From Limnochordales bacterium (GTDB lineage: Bacteria; Bacillota; Limnochordia; Limnochordales; ZCTH02-B6): DNA of 37,932 bases. Of the stretch, positions 18,909 through 28,545 are shown piece by piece. Every line of letters starts with the position of its first letter. The first letter of the stretch is position 1. Location: positions 1-37,932 of the forward strand of contig DATCKT010000300.1 in assembly GCA_036562195.1 (NCBI GenBank), written 5' to 3'. The notes under the pieces were generated by a model. It was not told where the DNA came from. It ran no database searches and saw only the letters and a list, made by a program, of their open reading frames with translations. A program made the translations under genes and the position numbers.

Positions 18909-19487
18909 TCAGGGCGAGGGGTCCGGCACCAGCTGGAAGGTGGCGGGGGTGCGCAGGATGGACATCTCCGTGATGGGCCAGTAACGCCAAATGGCGCGGC
19001 CGATGATGTGGTCGCGGGGCACAAACCCGACCCGCCGGTCCCGGCTGTCCTCGCTGTTGTTGCGGTTGTCGCCCAAAACAAAATAGCTGTCGGGCGGCAC
19101 CACCACCGGCCCAAAGGAACCGAACATGGGACCGGCGATGTAGGGCTCTTCCAAGGCGACACCGTTCACGTACACGGTGCCGCGGGAGATGAGGACTTCA
19201 TCGCCGGGGATGGCGATAATCCTCTTAATGAAGTGCTGTCGCGGGTTCGCGGGATACCGAAAAACGATGACGTCACCCCGCTGCGGGTCTTGAAACCGGT
19301 AGGTCAAGCGGTCCACCAGCAGGCGCTGCCCGTCTTCCAGCGTCGGCCGCATGGAAGGCCCGTCCACCGTGAAGGCCCGGGCGACGAACGTCATGATGAG
19401 CACGGCCAGGATGGCCGCGCCCACAAGGGTTTCCACGTACTCACGCAAGACGGACTTGCGCGGCTGAATCCGGGGTGCAGGCCGCAA
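18909..19487 (-). CDS. lepB: Signal peptidase I
   Basis: TM anchor LVGAAILAVLIMTFV. Catalytic Ser box DGPSMRPTL and Lys box KRIIAIPGD. Also YFVLGDNRNNSEDSR. TTG 19487 follows GGAGGTGG; the track start at 19547 is probably an over-extension. Confidence 0.88.
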   Translation of the reverse strand: MRPAPRIQPRKSVLREYVETLVGAAILAVLIMTFVARAFTVDGPSMRPTLEDGQRLLVDRLTYRFQDPQRGDVIVFRYPANPRQHFIKRIIAIPGDEVLISRGTVYVNGVALEEPYIAGPMFGSFGPVVVPPDSYFVLGDNRNNSEDSRDRRVGFVPRDHIIGRAIWRYWPITEMSILRTPATFQLVPDPSP

Positions 19488-21410: not shown

Positions 21411-22187
21411 ATGCATGCGTCGCCCTCGTGGATGAGCTCAATCCTTCGTTTGTTGGCGGTAGCGGCTTTGTGCGCGGGCCTCTGGGCGACCGGCCCGACC
21501 GCCTGGGCGCAGGCGCCTGACGACGCTTTTGCGGAAAACGTTTCTCCCGACGCACCTGCGGCAGGCACCGATCCGGTCCTGCCGCCGGTTTCCGTGGAGG
21601 AGCTGTGGGCCCAGGTAGAAGCGGTCTTGCGCACCATCAGGGACATCGAGCTCGTCGTGGAAGTGGAGCAGTACAACGCCACCGACGGCAGCGTCACGCC
21701 CGGTCGGGGGAGGCTGCTCGCGCTGCTGCCCGACCTGTTCCGTTTCGAGTGGCTGGAACCCGACATGCTGGCGGGCTCCATTTTATTGGTGGATCGGGCC
21801 CAAAACGAGGCCCGCCAGTACAACCCCATCCGGGAGGAAATCATCGTCCAGCAGTGGGACCGGCTGGCCGCCCAGCAGAACCTGGGGGAAAATCTGGACC
21901 GCTGGCTCTCGCTGCCGGACCCCAGCGCCTACGAGCTCGCCATGGGCGACGCCACCTACAACGACCGGCAGCCTTACTACGTCGTCCTGGCGCGCCCCCG
22001 CTCCGACCCCCGCCAGCTGTACGAGTTCCTGGTCCACCCAGAAACCTGGATGGTCAGCCAATTCCGGTACTTTGACGCGGACGGCCGGCTGGCGCTGCAT
22101 GCGTTTCTGCGCGACGTCCGGATCAACGGCGGCCTCGACGAGGCTCGCCTGCGCGCCATGCCCGCGGCCATCGTCCGGCACCGTTAA
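21411..22187 (+). CDS. Secreted LolA-like (outer-membrane lipoprotein-sorting/carrier fold) protein
   Basis: Signal peptide ILRLLAVAALCAGLWATGPTAWA/QAP. The body pattern GRGRLLALLPDLFRFEWLEPDMLAGSILLVDRAQNEARQYNPIREEIIV resembles LolA/YdcC-type proteins. This is a family call from pattern memory only. Confidence 0.5.
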   Translation: MHASPSWMSSILRLLAVAALCAGLWATGPTAWAQAPDDAFAENVSPDAPAAGTDPVLPPVSVEELWAQVEAVLRTIRDIELVVEVEQYNATDGSVTPGRGRLLALLPDLFRFEWLEPDMLAGSILLVDRAQNEARQYNPIREEIIVQQWDRLAAQQNLGENLDRWLSLPDPSAYELAMGDATYNDRQPYYVVLARPRSDPRQLYEFLVHPETWMVSQFRYFDADGRLALHAFLRDVRINGGLDEARLRAMPAAIVRHR

Positions 22188-22226: not shown

Positions 22227-25200
22227 GTGAGGCTGTCAGAGCTGTTTGTCCGGCGTCCGGTCACGACCGGCATGTTCATCGTGGCCATTTTGCTCTTTGG
22301 CGGCTTGTCCTGGAGCGGCCTCGGGCTTGAGCTGTACCCCGACATGCAACTCCCCTACATCACCGTCGCAACCCTCTATCCCAACGCCGACCCCCAAACC
22401 GTGGAAACCGAAGTGACCCACCAGGTGGAAGGCGTCTTGTCCACCGCGGCCGGCCTGACCCGGCTTGAGTCCATCAGCATGGAGAACATTTCCCTGGTGT
22501 TCGCCGAGTTCGGCTGGGGGACGGCCCTGGACGAAACCATCGCCGAGCTGCGGGCTCGCCTGGCCGCCCTGACCCTCACCCTGCCCGCCGACGCGCAGGC
22601 GCCCGTGGTCATGCGCCTGGATCCCACCGAGTTTCCCTCGCTGCTCATTGGCGTGTCGGGCCGCGGCGAAATGATGGAAGTCACCGACGCGGCGTTGCAG
22701 GTGATCCGGCCGCGTCTAGAACGGGTACCCGGGGTCGCGCAGGTGGCGGTCCTGGGCGGCGTGGAGCGGGAGATCCAGGTGCTCTACGACAGCGCCAAGC
22801 TGCGGGAGCACGATCTCACGCCCGCCCACCTGCAGCAGCTGTTGTCCCTGCAAAACGCCACCGTGCCCGCCGGGGTGCTGGAGCACGACGGGCGGCGCTG
22901 GCAGGCCCGGGTGGGCAACCATTTCACCAGCGTACAGGAGATCCGGGATTTGGTCATCGGCGAGAGCCGGCTGCCCGTGGAAGGCCTGGCGGCCCTGTGG
23001 CCACCCCTGCTCCGCGTGAAGGACGTGGCCCAGGTGGTGGACGGCGTGCGGGAACCTACCGGCTACGCCCGCATCGATGGCCGGCCGACGGTGCTGCTGC
23101 AAGTGTTTAAGCAGTCCGGCGCGAACACCGTGGCGGTGGCCGACGGCGTGCTGGCCGCCCTGGCGGAACTGGAACGGGAACTGCCCGACCTCAGCCTAAC
23201 CGTGATCGTCGACCAGTCCGCCCCCATCCGGCGGTCGCTGGAGAGCCTCATCGTGTACGGGCTTATCGGCGCGGGTATCGTGGTGGCGGTGCTGTTCCTC
23301 TTCCTGCGGCACTGGCGCAGCCTCCTGGTGGTGGCCTTGTCCATTCCGCTCTCCATCCTGCTGACCTTGATGGCCTTGTACGCGTGCCGGTTCGACTTAA
23401 ACTTGATGACCCTGGGGGGCCTGGCGCTGGCCACCGGCATGGTGGTGGACAACGCGATCATCGTGCTGGAAAACATCTTCCGGCGCCGCAGCGAGGGAGA
23501 AGACGCCATCCGGGCCAGCATCGAGGGCAGCCGGGAGATGACGGCGGCCATCATCGGCGCGACCTTGACCACCGTGGCCGTCTTCCTTCCCGCCGCGTTC
23601 ATGGACACCTTCGTCGGCCAGCTGTTCAAAGAGCTGGGCATCACGGTGTCCTTGGCCCTCGGGGCGTCGCTGCTCATCGCCCTCACCGTCGTGCCGAGCC
23701 TGGGGGCGGGCCTGCTTGGGGGCGATGCGCCGCTGCCCCACGTGACCTGGGAACAAGGCCGCATCGTGCGGGCATACGTGCCGCTGCTAGAGCGGGCGCT
23801 GGACCGGCGCGGGTGGCTTCTGGCCCTGGTCGCGGCGCTGGGCGTCGCCAGCCTCGCCATCGTGCCGCGCCTTGGCACGGAGTTCTTGCCCCCCGGCCAC
23901 GCGCGGGCGCTCTATGTGACCATGGAAACCGCGCCGGGAACGCCGCTGGCCGAAACGGACGCCGTGGCCCGGGCGGCGGAGGAGCGCCTGCGGGCCCTGC
24001 CCGCGGTGGAGCGGGTCGCGGCGCAAGTAGGCGAGCAGCGGCAAGAGGACATCATCACCCTCCTGGGCGACTACGGCGCCAACACCATCCAACTCATCGC
24101 GTTCCTGCGTTCGCCCGCGAGCCCGGAGCAGGTGCCGGCCGTCGCGGCCGAGATCCGCCAAGCCCTGTCGGACCTCCCCGTCGCCCGCCTGGCCGTGAGC
24201 AAGCAATGGAGCTCCAGCAACAACCTGCTCTCCAACGACGTCGTGCTGCAACTGAGCGGCCCGGACCTGGAAACCCTGCAGGATCTGGCGTTCCGGCTGC
24301 GGGACCGGTTGGCGCAAAACCCCGCCGTAGCCGATGTCCACGTTCCGCTCGCAACGCCCCAGCCCGAGCTGTTTTTGGCCGTCAACCAGTCCCGCGCCCT
24401 CATCGGCGGCCTGACCACGGCCCAGGTCAGCCTGGCGGTGCGCTACGCCCTGTCGGGGATCCAGGTGACGCAAGTGCGGGAGAATGGCCGGACGATTCCG
24501 GTGGTATTGCGCCCGCAGCCCAGCGAAACCGCGGACCTCGATCAGCTGCTCAACCATCCCATCAGCTCGCCGGTGCTCTTGGGCGGCGACGCGGCCCGCG
24601 TGCGCTTGGGCAACGTGGTGGAGGTGGTCGAGGGGACCGCGCCCCAGGCCATCCGGCGCATCGACGGCATGCGGGCCCTGGAAGTGCGCGTGCGGCCCAG
24701 CGGCCAAGACTTGACGGCCACCTTGGCCGCCGTCCAAGACGCCGTGGCGGCGGTGGACCTGCCCCCCGGCTACCAGATCCAAACCACGGGCATCCGCCAG
24801 CTCATCGACGAATCCCTGGACGACCTGGGCGGAGTGCTTCTGTGGTCGTTGGTGCTGGTGTACGCGGTCATGGCGGCCCAATTTGAGTCGTGGCGCCATC
24901 CCCTCATCATCATGGTCACCGCGCCCCTGGCGGCCCTGGGCTCCGTGTGGGCCATGTGGCTGGCCGGCCAAAAGCTGGGTGTCGCCTCTATGATTGGGCT
25001 CATCATGCTGGGCGGGATTGCGGTCAACAACGGCATCGTTCTGGTGGATCGGGTGCTGCAGCTGCGCGCCCAGGGCGTCGCCAACCGGACGGCCGTGGTG
25101 GAGGCGGCCCGCTCCCGGCTGCGGCCGGTGCTCATGACGGCCATCACCACCATTGCGGGCATGCTTCCGATGGCGGTGAGCCGCGGCGAGGGCACCGAGT

Positions 25201-26387
25201 TCCAGGTGCCGTTGGCCGTCACCGTCATCGGCGGCCTCTTTACGGCAACTTTGCTGACCCTGTTTGTCGTCCCGGCCCTGTGCCTGATGGTTGACGCACG
25301 GCGCGCTCCGGGCGCGGGGGCGCAAGCCGCCTCAGGCGCCGCTCGCGGCCCGGCGGCGGGGGCCGGTCGGCCGGCCAACCCGGCACCCCGGGCCCGCAAG
25401 GGCGGGGCCGGCGGCCGCTCCGTTCTGCTGGCGCTGCTTGGGACTGCCACGGTCGTATCCCTTCTCCCGGCGGCCCCGGCTCGCGCGCAGCCCGCCGATC
25501 TCCAGTGGATCGTCGGGATTGGGTACACCGAACCGGATCCGCACCCGTGGTACCTGGTGGGTGCCGGTTGGGAGCGCCGCGTCGGCGACTGGCGCTGGCG
25601 GCTGCAGCTGCAAGTCGCCGGTGACCCGCAGGACGCGGTGGCCTCCGCCGCCCTGGACGCCGGCGCAGAATGGTTCCAGCCCGTCTCCTTTTTTGGCTAC
25701 TACGAGCTTCAAGGCCGCCTCACCCTGCGGCGGACCGGCGGCGGGCCGATCCTGTCCGCGCTGTCCCTGCGGGGCGACGGCGTGCTGGGCAACATCACGG
25801 GCACCGTCGAGTTTGACGTCATCAGTCCAGGGTTTCCGGTGCAGCCCTGGGACCCGTACCACCGCGCCCGCCTGGCGGCCGGCGGCGACGGTCGCTACCA
25901 CTTGCGGGTGGAGGTGCGCCAGCAGCCCAACCGGGAGCTGAATCTCATCCGCGAGGTGCACTGGTCGCGCACCCGGGCACCGGGTACGGGTCCAGGCGCT
26001 TTCGTCGCGGCGACCGGTACGGAGCTTAGGGCGGGCAACGGGTGGCTTGGGGGCAAGGTGGGCGTGCGCTTGGACCAGCACGGCTGGCAGCCCGTATTCG
26101 GCGCCGGTTACCGCTTCCGGCCCAGCCCCTACTCCCAATTGACGCTCGGCGCCGTGTCGGCCACGGCCATCGTCGCCCACCCCTCCCTCTCCATCAGCTA
26201 CGAACTTTTGACCGAGACGCTGACGTTCACCGCCGAGCTGCAGCTGACGGCGGACGCGGAGAACCGTTACACGCCGGTGTTGTACCTGCAGGGCGAACCC
26301 CACGCCAGCGGCTGGCAGTGGCAGCTGCGGGTTGGCTCCCCCGCCACGGACCAGCCCGTAGTCGCGGGCCTGGCCATCGCCATCTGA
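22227..26387 (+). CDS. RND efflux transporter (AcrB/SwrC-like, ~1025 aa) fused in-frame to a ~360-aa C-terminal extension (linker + signal-like helix + beta-strand-rich domain)
   Basis: GTG start with a GGAG SD. The N-terminus LSELFVRRPVTTGMFIVAILLFGG..YPDMQLPYITVATLYPNADPQTVE is typical of RND pumps, and the 12-TM/2-loop organisation runs to ..LFVVPALCLMVDARR (aa ~1025). The frame stays open with coding-like GC3 through aa 1386. Confidence 0.85.
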   Translation: MRLSELFVRRPVTTGMFIVAILLFGGLSWSGLGLELYPDMQLPYITVATLYPNADPQTVETEVTHQVEGVLSTAAGLTRLESISMENISLVFAEFGWGTALDETIAELRARLAALTLTLPADAQAPVVMRLDPTEFPSLLIGVSGRGEMMEVTDAALQVIRPRLERVPGVAQVAVLGGVEREIQVLYDSAKLREHDLTPAHLQQLLSLQNATVPAGVLEHDGRRWQARVGNHFTSVQEIRDLVIGESRLPVEGLAALWPPLLRVKDVAQVVDGVREPTGYARIDGRPTVLLQVFKQSGANTVAVADGVLAALAELERELPDLSLTVIVDQSAPIRRSLESLIVYGLIGAGIVVAVLFLFLRHWRSLLVVALSIPLSILLTLMALYACRFDLNLMTLGGLALATGMVVDNAIIVLENIFRRRSEGEDAIRASIEGSREMTAAIIGATLTTVAVFLPAAFMDTFVGQLFKELGITVSLALGASLLIALTVVPSLGAGLLGGDAPLPHVTWEQGRIVRAYVPLLERALDRRGWLLALVAALGVASLAIVPRLGTEFLPPGHARALYVTMETAPGTPLAETDAVARAAEERLRALPAVERVAAQVGEQRQEDIITLLGDYGANTIQLIAFLRSPASPEQVPAVAAEIRQALSDLPVARLAVSKQWSSSNNLLSNDVVLQLSGPDLETLQDLAFRLRDRLAQNPAVADVHVPLATPQPELFLAVNQSRALIGGLTTAQVSLAVRYALSGIQVTQVRENGRTIPVVLRPQPSETADLDQLLNHPISSPVLLGGDAARVRLGNVVEVVEGTAPQAIRRIDGMRALEVRVRPSGQDLTATLAAVQDAVAAVDLPPGYQIQTTGIRQLIDESLDDLGGVLLWSLVLVYAVMAAQFESWRHPLIIMVTAPLAALGSVWAMWLAGQKLGVASMIGLIMLGGIAVNNGIVLVDRVLQLRAQGVANRTAVVEAARSRLRPVLMTAITTIAGMLPMAVSRGEGTEFQVPLAVTVIGGLFTATLLTLFVVPALCLMVDARRAPGAGAQAASGAARGPAAGAGRPANPAPRARKGGAGGRSVLLALLGTATVVSLLPAAPARAQPADLQWIVGIGYTEPDPHPWYLVGAGWERRVGDWRWRLQLQVAGDPQDAVASAALDAGAEWFQPVSFFGYYELQGRLTLRRTGGGPILSALSLRGDGVLGNITGTVEFDVISPGFPVQPWDPYHRARLAAGGDGRYHLRVEVRQQPNRELNLIREVHWSRTRAPGTGPGAFVAATGTELRAGNGWLGGKVGVRLDQHGWQPVFGAGYRFRPSPYSQLTLGAVSATAIVAHPSLSISYELLTETLTFTAELQLTADAENRYTPVLYLQGEPHASGWQWQLRVGSPATDQPVVAGLAIAI

Positions 26388-26643
26388 GCCCTCCTCACCG
26401 CCCTGGTCAGCCGGAAATCCGCCGCCGTGGCCGCAGGCGGTCAAGGGGCGCCGGCCCGGGCGCGGACGGGGACAACCGCGGACAAGCCCGCATGAGGGCA
26501 ACCTTGCCTCCCCCTGCTAATACAATGTAAGACACCAACACACCCACCGGCCGGCGCCCGGCTGCCGGCAGCCGGCGCCCCGCACCGCGGCAGCTGCCCA
26601 TGGAGTCGCCGTTTTCACGCTTCATCGGTTTCCTCTGGGAGGG

Positions 26644-28545
26644 ATGGCCATGGACTTCCTGCAGCGCCTGCGGGAGCACCGTCGCCAGGAAGAAGAGTTG
26701 GCCTGGGAAGGCACCTTCGCCCAGTATTACGAGCTGGTGCGCCAGCAACCCAGCATCGCCCAGCACGCCCACGCCCGCGTCTACCAGATGATCCTGTCCC
26801 ACGGGGTCGAGGAAGTGAACGGCCGTAAGCGGTACCGGTTCTTCGCCCAGGACCTGTTTGGCTTGGAGGAGGCGCTGGAGCGGCTGGTGGAGGAGTACTT
26901 CCACTCCGCCGCCCGGCGCTTAGACGTGCGCAAGCGCATCTTGCTGCTCATGGGCCCGGTAAGCGGCGGCAAGTCTACCATCGTGACCTTGCTCAAGCGG
27001 GGCCTAGAGGCCTACACCCGCACGCCTGCGGGGGCCCTCTACGCGATCAAGGGCTGTCCCATGCACGAGGAGCCGCTGCACCTGGTGCCGCCGGAGCTGC
27101 GCCCCGAGGTGGAACGGGAACTGGGCGTCGCCATCGAAGGCAGTCTCTGCCCCGCCTGCCGGGTCACGCTCGAGGAGCAGTACGGCGGCCGGCTGGAAGA
27201 CGTGCCCGTGCGGCGCATTGCCCTGTCAGAGGAGAAGCGCATCGGCATCGGCACCTTCCAGCCCTCGGACCCCAAGAGCCAGGACATCGCGGAGCTCACG
27301 GGCAGCGTCGACTTCGCGGCCATTACCCAGTACGGCGCCGAGTCGGATCCCCGGGCCTACCGGTTTGACGGGGAGCTCAACATCGCCAACCGGGGCATCC
27401 TGGAAATGCAAGAGATGCTCAAGATGGACGAGAAGTTCCTCTGGCACCTGCTCAGCCTGTCCCAGGAGGGCAACTTCAAGGCCGGCCGCTTCGCCCTCAT
27501 CTCCGCGGACGAGGTCATCATTGCCCACACCAACGAAGAAGAGTACCGGCACTTCATCGCCAACAAGAAGAACGAAGCCCTCCATTCCCGCATGATCGTC
27601 ATCCCCATCCCCTATGCCTTGCGGGTCAGCGACGAGGTGCGGATCTACGAGAAGCTCATCCGCCAGAGCGAGCTGCGGGATGTGCACATGGCGCCCCATG
27701 CCCTGCGGGTGGCGGCCATGGTCAGCGTCCTCTCCCGGCTGCAGGAGTCCAAGAAACACGGCATGGACCTGGTGAAGAAGATGAAGCTGTATGACGGCCA
27801 GGACGTGGACGGTTTCCAGCCCAAGGACGTGGAGGAGCTGCGGCGGGAGTTTCCTGCAGAGGGCATGCAGGGCCTCGACCCTCGCTACGTCATCAACCGC
27901 ATCTCCAGCGCCCTGGTCACCCGCCAAAGCAACTGCATCGGCCCCCTGGACGTCCTGCGGGCGCTGCGCAACGGCTTGGACCAGCACCCCTCCATCACCG
28001 AAGAGGAGAAAGAGCGCGTGCTCAACTTCATCGCCCTGGCCCGCAAGGAGTACGACGAGATCGCCAAGACCGAGGTGCAGAAGGCCTTCGTGTACTCCTT
28101 CGAAGAATCGGCCCGGGCCTTGTTCGACAACTACCTGGACCACGTGGAAGCCTACTGCAACTGGCACAAGGTCAAGGACCCTGTCACCGGCGAGGAAGTG
28201 GAACCCGACGAGAAGCTGATGCGCTCCATCGAAGAGCAGATCGGCGTGTCGGAAAACGCCAAGAAAGCCTTCCGAGAAGAGATCCTGATCCGCATCTCAA
28301 CGTACGCCCGGCGGGGCAAGCGGTTTGACTACCACTCCCACGAGCGGCTCCGGGAAGCCATCGAGCGCAAGCTGTTCGCGGACATGCGGGACGTCATCCG
28401 GGTCACCACGTCCGCCACCAACCCCGATCCCGACCAGTTGCGGCGGCTGAACGAGGTCATCGCGCGGCTCGTGGCCGGGCACGGCTACTGCGAAATCTGC
28501 GCCAACGAGCTGCTGCGCTATGCCGGGAGCCTGCTCAACCGGTGA
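26644..28545 (+). CDS. prkA: PrkA-family serine protein kinase (AAA+/Lon-like)
   Basis: Walker A LLLMGPVSGGKST. The similarity runs full length, e.g. ..CPMHEEPLHL..GIGTFQPSDPKSQDI.ELTGS.DF..I...G.ESDPRAY.F.GEL..ANRG..E..EMLK. Confidence 0.92.
   Translation: MAMDFLQRLREHRRQEEELAWEGTFAQYYELVRQQPSIAQHAHARVYQMILSHGVEEVNGRKRYRFFAQDLFGLEEALERLVEEYFHSAARRLDVRKRILLLMGPVSGGKSTIVTLLKRGLEAYTRTPAGALYAIKGCPMHEEPLHLVPPELRPEVERELGVAIEGSLCPACRVTLEEQYGGRLEDVPVRRIALSEEKRIGIGTFQPSDPKSQDIAELTGSVDFAAITQYGAESDPRAYRFDGELNIANRGILEMQEMLKMDEKFLWHLLSLSQEGNFKAGRFALISADEVIIAHTNEEEYRHFIANKKNEALHSRMIVIPIPYALRVSDEVRIYEKLIRQSELRDVHMAPHALRVAAMVSVLSRLQESKKHGMDLVKKMKLYDGQDVDGFQPKDVEELRREFPAEGMQGLDPRYVINRISSALVTRQSNCIGPLDVLRALRNGLDQHPSITEEEKERVLNFIALARKEYDEIAKTEVQKAFVYSFEESARALFDNYLDHVEAYCNWHKVKDPVTGEEVEPDEKLMRSIEEQIGVSENAKKAFREEILIRISTYARRGKRFDYHSHERLREAIERKLFADMRDVIRVTTSATNPDPDQLRRLNEVIARLVAGHGYCEICANELLRYAGSLLNR

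Follow-up and report, generated by a model that had tools for sequence, protein, structure and literature searches.

The AmeABCD system of Castellaniella defragrans is a cassette that combines a resistance-nodulation-division (RND) pump with a LolA-superfamily protein and an outer-membrane barrel (PMC6394551). The locus considered here brings together similar parts in another arrangement. It lies on a stretch of 37,932 nucleotides from a Limnochordales bacterium (contig DATCKT010000300.1 of assembly GCA_036562195.1; the whole stretch is called the window below), where one open reading frame (ORF; 22227..26387, plus strand) encodes a protein of 1386 amino acids made up of an RND core, a basic linker, a signal-peptide-like segment and a C-terminal domain of 299 residues. 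The C-terminal domain is predicted to be an outer-membrane-type beta-barrel, and the neighbouring upstream gene encodes a secreted protein with a predicted LolA-type fold. Both membranes appear to receive proteins from this single gene.

How does this locus compare with the systems already described? AmeABCD and the DUF1302/DUF1329/BNR/RND cassettes of Pseudomonas (PMC6394551; bioRxiv 10.1101/2020.07.04.188060) likewise consist of an RND pump, a LolA-superfamily protein and a barrel that is not of the TolC type, and they have no classical membrane fusion protein (MFP). However, those cassettes are made of separate genes, use an HAE3 RND pump, include a BNR/Ycf48-like protein and are found in Proteobacteria; the window system differs from them in all four respects. 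The window barrel has no Pfam match to DUF1302, and the putative carrier has none to DUF1329. Judged by analogy, the AmeABCD-type cassettes would be the closest functional analogues, with the window system analogous to them but not a member of the group.

The closest precedent for one polypeptide that serves both membranes is MlaD of Veillonella parvula and other diderm Terrabacteria, which likewise unites an outer-membrane barrel with a transporter part located in the inner membrane, again in a diderm Firmicute (PMC10665443). As an MCE protein, MlaD has one transmembrane (TM) helix, a helical region of ~150 residues that spans the periplasm and a barrel of 10 strands, and it is not believed to be cleaved (PMC10665443). 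By contrast, the window protein has a 12-TM RND pump, a signal-like segment of the A-x-A type, no spacer, a predicted 18 strands, and no Pfam match to MCE.

Pumps of the AcrAB-TolC type share homology with the window protein along the whole RND core, and in both cases the pump has a genetic link to an outer-membrane component. The window locus, however, has no MFP/HlyD adaptor, and its outer-membrane part is predicted to be an all-beta monomeric barrel and not an alpha/beta trimer like TolC. A parallel of another kind is FbcH, the cytochrome b-c1 polyprotein of Bradyrhizobium japonicum, in which a polytopic membrane protein is reportedly followed by an internal signal peptide, with cleavage shown experimentally to free a second exported protein. 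The proteins are unrelated, and the part released from FbcH is said to be a membrane-anchored cytochrome that faces the periplasm, not an outer-membrane barrel; for the window protein, moreover, we infer the cleavage. An earlier note made from the letters of this DNA (the original prediction) knew of no described RND-barrel fusion, and literature searches found no paper describing one either. The components of the system are of known kinds. What is new is the covalent layout of pump, signal peptide and barrel, the barrel family itself, and the pairing with a LolA-fold protein without MFP or TolC.

Does the host have an outer membrane to receive such a barrel? Limnochordia have been described as the third diderm class of Firmicutes, with an outer membrane seen by transmission electron microscopy in Geochorda and Carboxydochorda (PMC11456536), and they are also listed among the diderm classes in PMC11448272. 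According to the summary given in PMC11456536, the analysis of Taib et al. 2020 covered 46 genomes and reported clusters of outer-membrane markers in every one of them. At the level of the lineage, the literature thus reports the second membrane that a barrel of this type calls for.

The RND core occupies residues 1-1025 of the window protein (22227..25301, plus strand) and has 12 TM helices, two large periplasmic loops and a cytoplasmic C-terminus. Pfam ACR_tran (PF00873) matches residues 4-1022 with 762.5 bits (cut-off 28) over positions 2-1020 of the 1021 in the model, and the closest unfused homologues are 1020-1050 residues long; the pump is therefore complete at about residue 1025. Beyond this point the same frame continues for 361 codons (25302-26384). 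The G+C content at third codon positions (GC3) is 0.78-0.92 in the frame of the extension and falls to 0.66 after the stop codon and then to 0.48; it is continuous over the junction of pump and extension. The surrounding DNA has a G+C content of ~68-72% and numerous long spurious ORFs, so the length of an ORF is by itself no proof of coding. The extension is taken to be real coding sequence because GC3 is kept in the plus frame and because conserved homologues exist. An antisense ORF of 389 residues (25332..26501, minus strand) covers the whole extension and is judged to be spurious and driven by G+C content. The fusion of pump and extension is confirmed, and the original prediction was accurate in placing the end of a core of normal length at about residue 1025, in counting 361 further coding-like codons, and in dividing these into a basic linker, a signal-like segment and a domain of ~299 residues.

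How widely is the fusion conserved? With the barrel alone as query, HMMER was run exhaustively against 1.84 billion representative proteins and gave 12 matches with E-values down to 6e-97, and the barrel family is therefore rare. Among the 12 are fused RND proteins (P0001, 55% identity; P0002, 43%; P0008, 32%) and free-standing proteins with an N-terminal signal peptide (P0003, P0009, P0010 and P0011); the rest are fragments. A word-indexed homology search gave no match for the whole extension, and with the barrel alignment it gave only P0011; low-complexity matches probably took up its limited number of candidate places. In a scan of one genome per GTDB species, made with an alignment of the four closest barrel sequences, seven loci were found, all in metagenome-assembled genomes (MAGs) whose titles give Limnochordales, Bacillota or Firmicutes; the compost MAGs ZCTH02-B6 and ZC4RG06 are among them. 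The barrel lies in the RND frame at all seven; six are open frames of 1361-1406 codons and one is ended by a contig edge. A search with the full protein found that its 18 closest clusters are 1357-1405 residues long, with 42-85% identity and 99-100% coverage, while the next tier has ~1045 residues and aligns over the pump alone. The barrel hidden Markov model (HMM) matches 20 fused RND proteins among the sequences collected. These come from separate ENA, JGI, NCBI and Logan assemblies, and their RND identity ranges from 85% down to 38%.

These results bear on the idea that two adjacent genes have been joined artefactually, by misassembly or a frameshift. The pump protein is encoded on a metagenome contig (ENA ERZ4232226 NODE_1181, 42 kb, coverage ~11x), one relative has pump and barrel as separate genes, and a chimeric ORF (P0007) involving the barrel is present in another assembly, all of which might be cited in favour of an artefact. 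Yet the fusion is in frame in seven of seven GTDB representative genomes and in about 20 protein clusters from separate assemblies, GC3 does not break at the junction, and the complete genome of a cultured species, Carboxydochorda subterranea, has an RND protein of like layout. In-frame fusion in independent assemblies excludes an assembly artefact, and this explanation can be regarded as effectively refuted. Comparison of orthologues, which the original prediction had proposed as a check, therefore leaves the fusion standing; the sole split orthologue is nested within the fused clade, as described below.

What does the extension encode? The C-terminal domain (residues 1088-1386 plus the stop codon; 25488..26387, plus strand) is rich in Trp, Tyr and Gly. 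AlphaFold2, run on an alignment of nine sequences, gave a confident model (mean pLDDT 88.8, pTM 0.82) with 18 antiparallel strands in a simple up-down meander and just two short helices. When this model was compared with the PDB by Foldseek, 116 matches with E<=1e-3 were obtained, and the best 50 of the 116 are all outer-membrane barrels; the matches listed include the Rhodopseudomonas blastica porin (2e-7), OmpG, the 18-stranded AlgE, LptD, BtuB and FepA. Most strands have one clearly hydrophobic and one polar face. The even-numbered connections between strands are all of 2-3 residues, and the odd-numbered ones range from 2 to 23. In the model, this pattern would correspond to short periplasmic turns, longer external loops and two periplasmic termini, as in a textbook outer-membrane protein (OMP). 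The C-terminus reads G-x-x-[T/I]-x-F in the other fused homologues and in six of the seven genome loci, which resembles the OMP beta-signal, and the split form P0003 likewise ends in F. Neither alone nor as a profile does the extension have a sequence match in Pfam, NCBIfam or the PDB; a Pfam search with all nine barrel sequences also returned no family, and no match of the OEP/TolC type. The structural prediction supports a transmembrane-type beta-barrel of a family that has no Pfam entry. The barrel-like character that had been read from the letters is borne out by the model, which is neither disordered nor a soluble fold of another kind, and the family search suggested at that time assigns the domain to no known family.

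A beta-rich domain need not be located in the outer membrane, and the extension might be a secreted or periplasmic module that serves, for example, in binding or in plugging the pump. Such a role would fit with the lack of a sequence match to any known OMP family, with the missing terminal Phe of the window copy, and with structural TM-scores below 0.5. It fits poorly with the Foldseek result, where membrane barrels fill all of the best 50 of 116 places, and with the even number of strands, their hydrophobic faces and the alternation of short turns with long loops. Moreover, G at position -6 and F at position -1 are conserved in the fused homologues except for the subclade of the window protein. 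A location outside the outer membrane is quite improbable on this evidence.

How could a domain at the C-terminus of an inner-membrane pump reach the periplasm? Between pump and barrel lies a basic linker rich in Ala, Gly, Arg and Pro (residues 1026-1063; 25302..25415, plus strand), which ends in the positively charged n-region RARKGGAGGR. It is followed by the internal signal-peptide-like segment (25416..25487, plus strand), with the h-region SVLLALLGTATVVSLL, the residues P-A-A-P and then A-R-A before Q1088. The original prediction had placed this segment at ~25416-25487; when remapped with its n-region, the whole n-h-c stretch RKGGAGGRSVLLALLGTATVVSLLPAAPARA, followed by QPAD, covers 25395-25487 (residues 1057-1087), with the h-region from ~25419. 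The criteria for a signal peptide (a positive n-region, an h-region of ~7-16 residues, and small residues at -3 and -1) were checked by hand, and the layout RKGGAGGR / SVLLALLGTATVVSLL / PAAPARA, then Q, fits the rules for Sec signal peptides. The h-region has ~16 residues with prolines after it, as is typical of signal peptides; a stable anchor would be expected to be longer.

In the homologues the linker is hypervariable in sequence, ~15-55 residues long and generally basic, with acidic linkers in some fused relatives (P0023, P0026 and P0027). The next 15-25 uncharged residues also vary in sequence and retain the n-h-c layout, and A-x-A-type motifs (AQA, ARA, AKA, AAA or ALA) directly precede the barrel in most fused homologues. 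In the window protein the segment is internal and comes after 12 TM helices; its counterpart in the split P0003, and in the free-standing P0009 and P0011, is a signal peptide at the N-terminus. By this comparison, the hydrophobic segment of the fused proteins is homologous to a true N-terminal signal peptide, which agrees with the description of a 13th helix that resembles a signal peptide. The C-termini of RND proteins are cytoplasmic, as known from AcrB structures, and the linker would accordingly lie in the cytoplasm. A cytoplasmic RND C-terminus, a basic linker and a hydrophobic segment in the N-in/C-out orientation together give the right topology to export the C-terminal part.

Is the exported domain cut from the pump or does it stay attached? 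In the AlphaFold2 model, strand 1 of the barrel begins 4 residues after A-R-A. At this distance an uncleaved barrel could not reach the outer membrane, and the domain, if it is an outer-membrane barrel, cannot stay tied to an inner-membrane helix; cleavage is then required. The alternative is that the segment persists as a 13th TM anchor and leaves the barrel covalently on the pump, either as a transenvelope tether of the MlaD kind or as a domain close to the inner membrane. V. parvula MlaD shows that one polypeptide can combine an anchor in the inner membrane with an outer-membrane barrel at its C-terminus (PMC10665443), and the strong conservation of the fusion could reflect a need for physical linkage. 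However, MlaD crosses the periplasm by its helical spacer of ~150 residues, in place of which the window protein has ~4 residues. In the split orthologue the barrel is secreted as a protein of its own, and most fused homologues keep small residues at -3 and -1. In addition, no beta-barrel is known from a bacterial inner membrane. An uncleaved protein is unlikely for these reasons.

The split orthologue, P0003 (326 residues), is found on three short contigs (locus L002). Here the pump ends in DDEEEMTS followed by a stop codon, and the TGA overlaps the GTG start of the barrel gene (GTGA). A Shine-Dalgarno (SD) sequence, GAGGAGGAG, lies ~9 nucleotides upstream of this GTG (300-335 of L002) and is formed by the Glu codons of the acidic tail of the pump. 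The barrel ORF starts with MTGRAPAALALLVAGVLTLFAYSVPVGAQ followed by LDV, and the n-h-c segment now stands at the N-terminus as a signal peptide. The locus shows a route by which a shift of 1 nucleotide can turn a fused gene into a coupled pair.

Could the barrel of the fused genes also be translated separately from an internal start, so that the fusion is apparent only at the level of DNA? The one in-frame ATG noted earlier, at 25287 inside the last RND helix (M1021), is indeed the only one: a scan of start codons from TM12 to the barrel of the window found no other in-frame ATG and no GTG or TTG, and M1021 has no SD. In loci L010 and L012-L015, start-like codons between TM12 and the cleavage site of the signal peptide all lack an SD; the only SD-associated start-like codon in this set is a TTG at codon 1073 of L015, just before the barrel. 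The absence of an SD-bearing start in the linkers of the window and these five orthologues argues against separate translation. Internal initiation does find some support in the split relative, where the Glu codons of an acidic linker make a strong SD before a GTG, and in the acidic linkers of the fused P0023, P0026 and P0027. Nevertheless, the fused genes have no stop codon at the junction, so the full-length protein would be made anyway. Separate translation is highly improbable, and release by signal peptidase is favoured over it from the sequence data.

Have pump and barrel come together once, or is the split form ancestral? In a neighbour-joining tree of barrel domains, P0003 lies inside the fused clade beside P0026 and P0027, and the free-standing P0009 and P0011 form the outgroup. 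This topology suggests that an independent secreted barrel gene was joined to the pump at the base of the fused clade. It also suggests that one lineage later split the fusion again by frameshift, and that the Glu codons of an acidic linker became a ribosome-binding site. Since the split orthologue is nested in the fused clade, the barrel is able to work when made as a polypeptide of its own.

The neighbourhood of the free-standing relatives was read for P0011; the contig of P0009 is 1 kb long. P0011 (L005 8001-8894; also L006-L008) is a distant relative with 23% identity that adjoins an S41/PDZ peptidase and not an RND gene, in a high-GC (66%) spore-former with a GPR protease. The barrel family thus also exists as an ordinary OMP gene away from RND.

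Taken together, it is fairly probable that the fused gene encodes a polyprotein from which signal peptidase frees the barrel for the outer membrane, and that barrel, LolA-like carrier and pump form an envelope exporter independent of MFP and TolC. In this scheme a two-gene operon would encode a secreted LolA-fold carrier (gene 1) and the pump-barrel polyprotein (gene 2). Once the RND pump is inserted in the inner membrane, its C-terminus would face the cytoplasm and the basic linker would remain there, while the short hydrophobic segment, acting as an internal Sec signal peptide, would lead the 299 C-terminal residues through to the periplasmic side. Cleavage after A-R-A by signal peptidase I would follow, and the freed domain would fold in the outer membrane as an 18-stranded barrel. 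Together, pump, carrier and barrel might then carry a hydrophobic or lipid-like substrate out of the inner membrane, either to the outer membrane or across it, along a route with no MFP adaptor and no TolC-type duct. The fusion would ensure that pump and barrel are co-produced at 1:1.

Several observations weigh against this scheme. Gene fusion and synteny are the whole of the evidence that links the barrel functionally to the pump, and A-x-A motifs easily arise by chance in a sequence rich in Ala. The Foldseek TM-scores of the barrel model are just 0.42-0.47, which points to a generic outer-membrane-barrel fold and not to membership of a solved family. In addition, the window protein (26370-26387) and P0014, which is 85% identical to it, end in GLAIAI, a hydrophobic ending with Gly at -6 and a last residue that is not aromatic. 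This ending may represent a relaxed beta-signal in the subclade of the window protein and P0014.

What would such a polyprotein mean for the envelope of these bacteria? Gene fusion is among the strongest genomic signs of joint function, and here it joins an RND pump to an unclassified outer-membrane barrel family, with a LolA-fold protein beside them. If the barrel is freed by signal peptidase, this would be the first case known to us of an OMP produced from a polyprotein with an inner-membrane transporter. It would bear on efflux and lipid export without MFP and TolC, and on how envelopes evolved at the diderm/monoderm transition. A broader proposal, held tentatively and given slightly less than an even chance, is that Limnochordia make an OMP as the C-terminal part of an inner-membrane transporter, that each RND protomer delivers its own barrel by way of an internal signal peptide, and that barrel and LolA-fold carrier complete a tripartite system for lipid or hydrophobic transport independent of MFP and TolC. 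If true, this would add a new route of OMP biogenesis, by polyprotein processing, and a new architecture of RND-driven envelope transport in diderm Firmicutes. Limnochordia are a deep-branching class of diderm Firmicutes whose envelope transport is essentially unstudied, and the generic database name of the fused proteins, 'efflux RND transporter permease subunit', hides the add-on. The cultured relatives Carboxydochorda, Geochorda and Limnochorda make the question directly testable.

The partner gene directly upstream of the pump (21411..22187, plus strand) encodes a secreted protein of 258 residues with a LolA-superfamily fold according to its model; it is absent from the original prediction. 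The gap of 39 nucleotides between the two genes suggests one operon. The partner gene stands directly upstream of the fused RND gene in every locus examined (L009, L010, L012-L016 and L021), and is likewise found upstream of the RND gene in the complete genome of the cultured C. subterranea, whose orthologue has the UniRef name 'Outer membrane lipoprotein-sorting protein'. The AlphaFold2 model of the partner has a pLDDT of 79.2. Its best 50 Foldseek matches are all LolA, RseB/MucB, DUF1329 or TTHA1012 structures, with a best E-value of 1e-10, a TMt of 0.74 for TTHA1012, and the DUF1329 structure 4z48 among them. In Pfam the partner has no match at gathering score to LolA, LolA_like or DUF1329; below threshold, LolA_like is matched with an E-value of 0.0019 in two of eight orthologues and MucB_RseB with 0.007 in one of the eight. 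The model is consistent with an open beta-barrel fold of the LolA/LolB/RseB type.

No gene within ~10 kb of the pump has a Pfam family of the HlyD/MFP kind, and the pump locus contains no TolC-type gene and no BNR gene. The nearest unfused RND protein, P0030, is encoded by a lone gene with neither partner nor barrel. In the first 12 kb of the window, Pfam searches of the ORFs returned only dehydrogenases and an isochorismatase, and no envelope-related family. A gene for signal peptidase I (Peptidase_S26; 18909..19487, minus strand) lies three genes upstream of the pump and is also found in L009 (5008-5592) and L021 (901-1476). L001, L009 and the distant L021 share the gene order S26 / ReoY_N / Lactamase_B / LolA-like / RND-barrel, and the block is syntenic even where the RND protein of the relative is only 38% identical. 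This arrangement is suggestive, though unproven: the gene might encode the processing enzyme, or the synteny might be coincidental.

Immediately downstream of the pump lies a PrkA / DUF444 (YhbH) / SpoVR operon (26644-28545 and on), a Firmicute gene set. It is present at the split locus as well, where PrkA appears to follow the barrel gene as it does in the window, and is absent downstream of the fused gene in L009. The chimeric ORF P0007 (329 residues) joins the C-terminus of the barrel to the N-terminus of PrkA; this is probably a frameshift or assembly error in that assembly, and the chimera confirms the order of barrel and PrkA genes.

The pump gene starts with a GTG at 22227 that has the SD sequence AAGGAG 8 nucleotides upstream. 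NCBIfam gave only generic matches to RND subfamilies (RND_permease_2, 635 bits, under the naming cut-off), and the HAE3 model TIGR00921 reached 70 bits against a cut-off of 352. In AcrB, the reference residues are D-D in TM4 and Lys940 in TM10. The acidic proton-relay residue of TM4 is present in the window pump as the Asp of VDNAI (GMVVDNAIIVLE, residues 404-415), while TM10 (residues 929-940) carries N-N and the equivalent of Lys940 is not there. The D-N pair in TM4 is more frequent than any other state in the 120 nearest homologues, and the Asp is shared with most neighbouring Firmicute RND proteins; the pair is therefore a trait of the clade and not a sign of decay.

Is the window protein an isolated case? 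Other RND proteins of Limnochordia have C-terminal add-ons of like layout, with a basic linker, a hydrophobic segment and 300-400 residues that appear rich in beta-structure and have a hydrophobic or aromatic end. P0063 and P0099 are distant members of the window barrel family (hhalign probability 92%). A lipobox-like L-[SAV]-A-C occurs in the extensions of P0066, P0067 and P0069, to which the A1 barrel profile detects no similarity. The presence of several unrelated add-ons of like layout in sister pumps suggests a recurrent strategy. In the cultured C. subterranea, the RND protein P0070 (L019 6001-10374, CP141615.1) has 1457 residues and carries a different extension, which ends in FPF.

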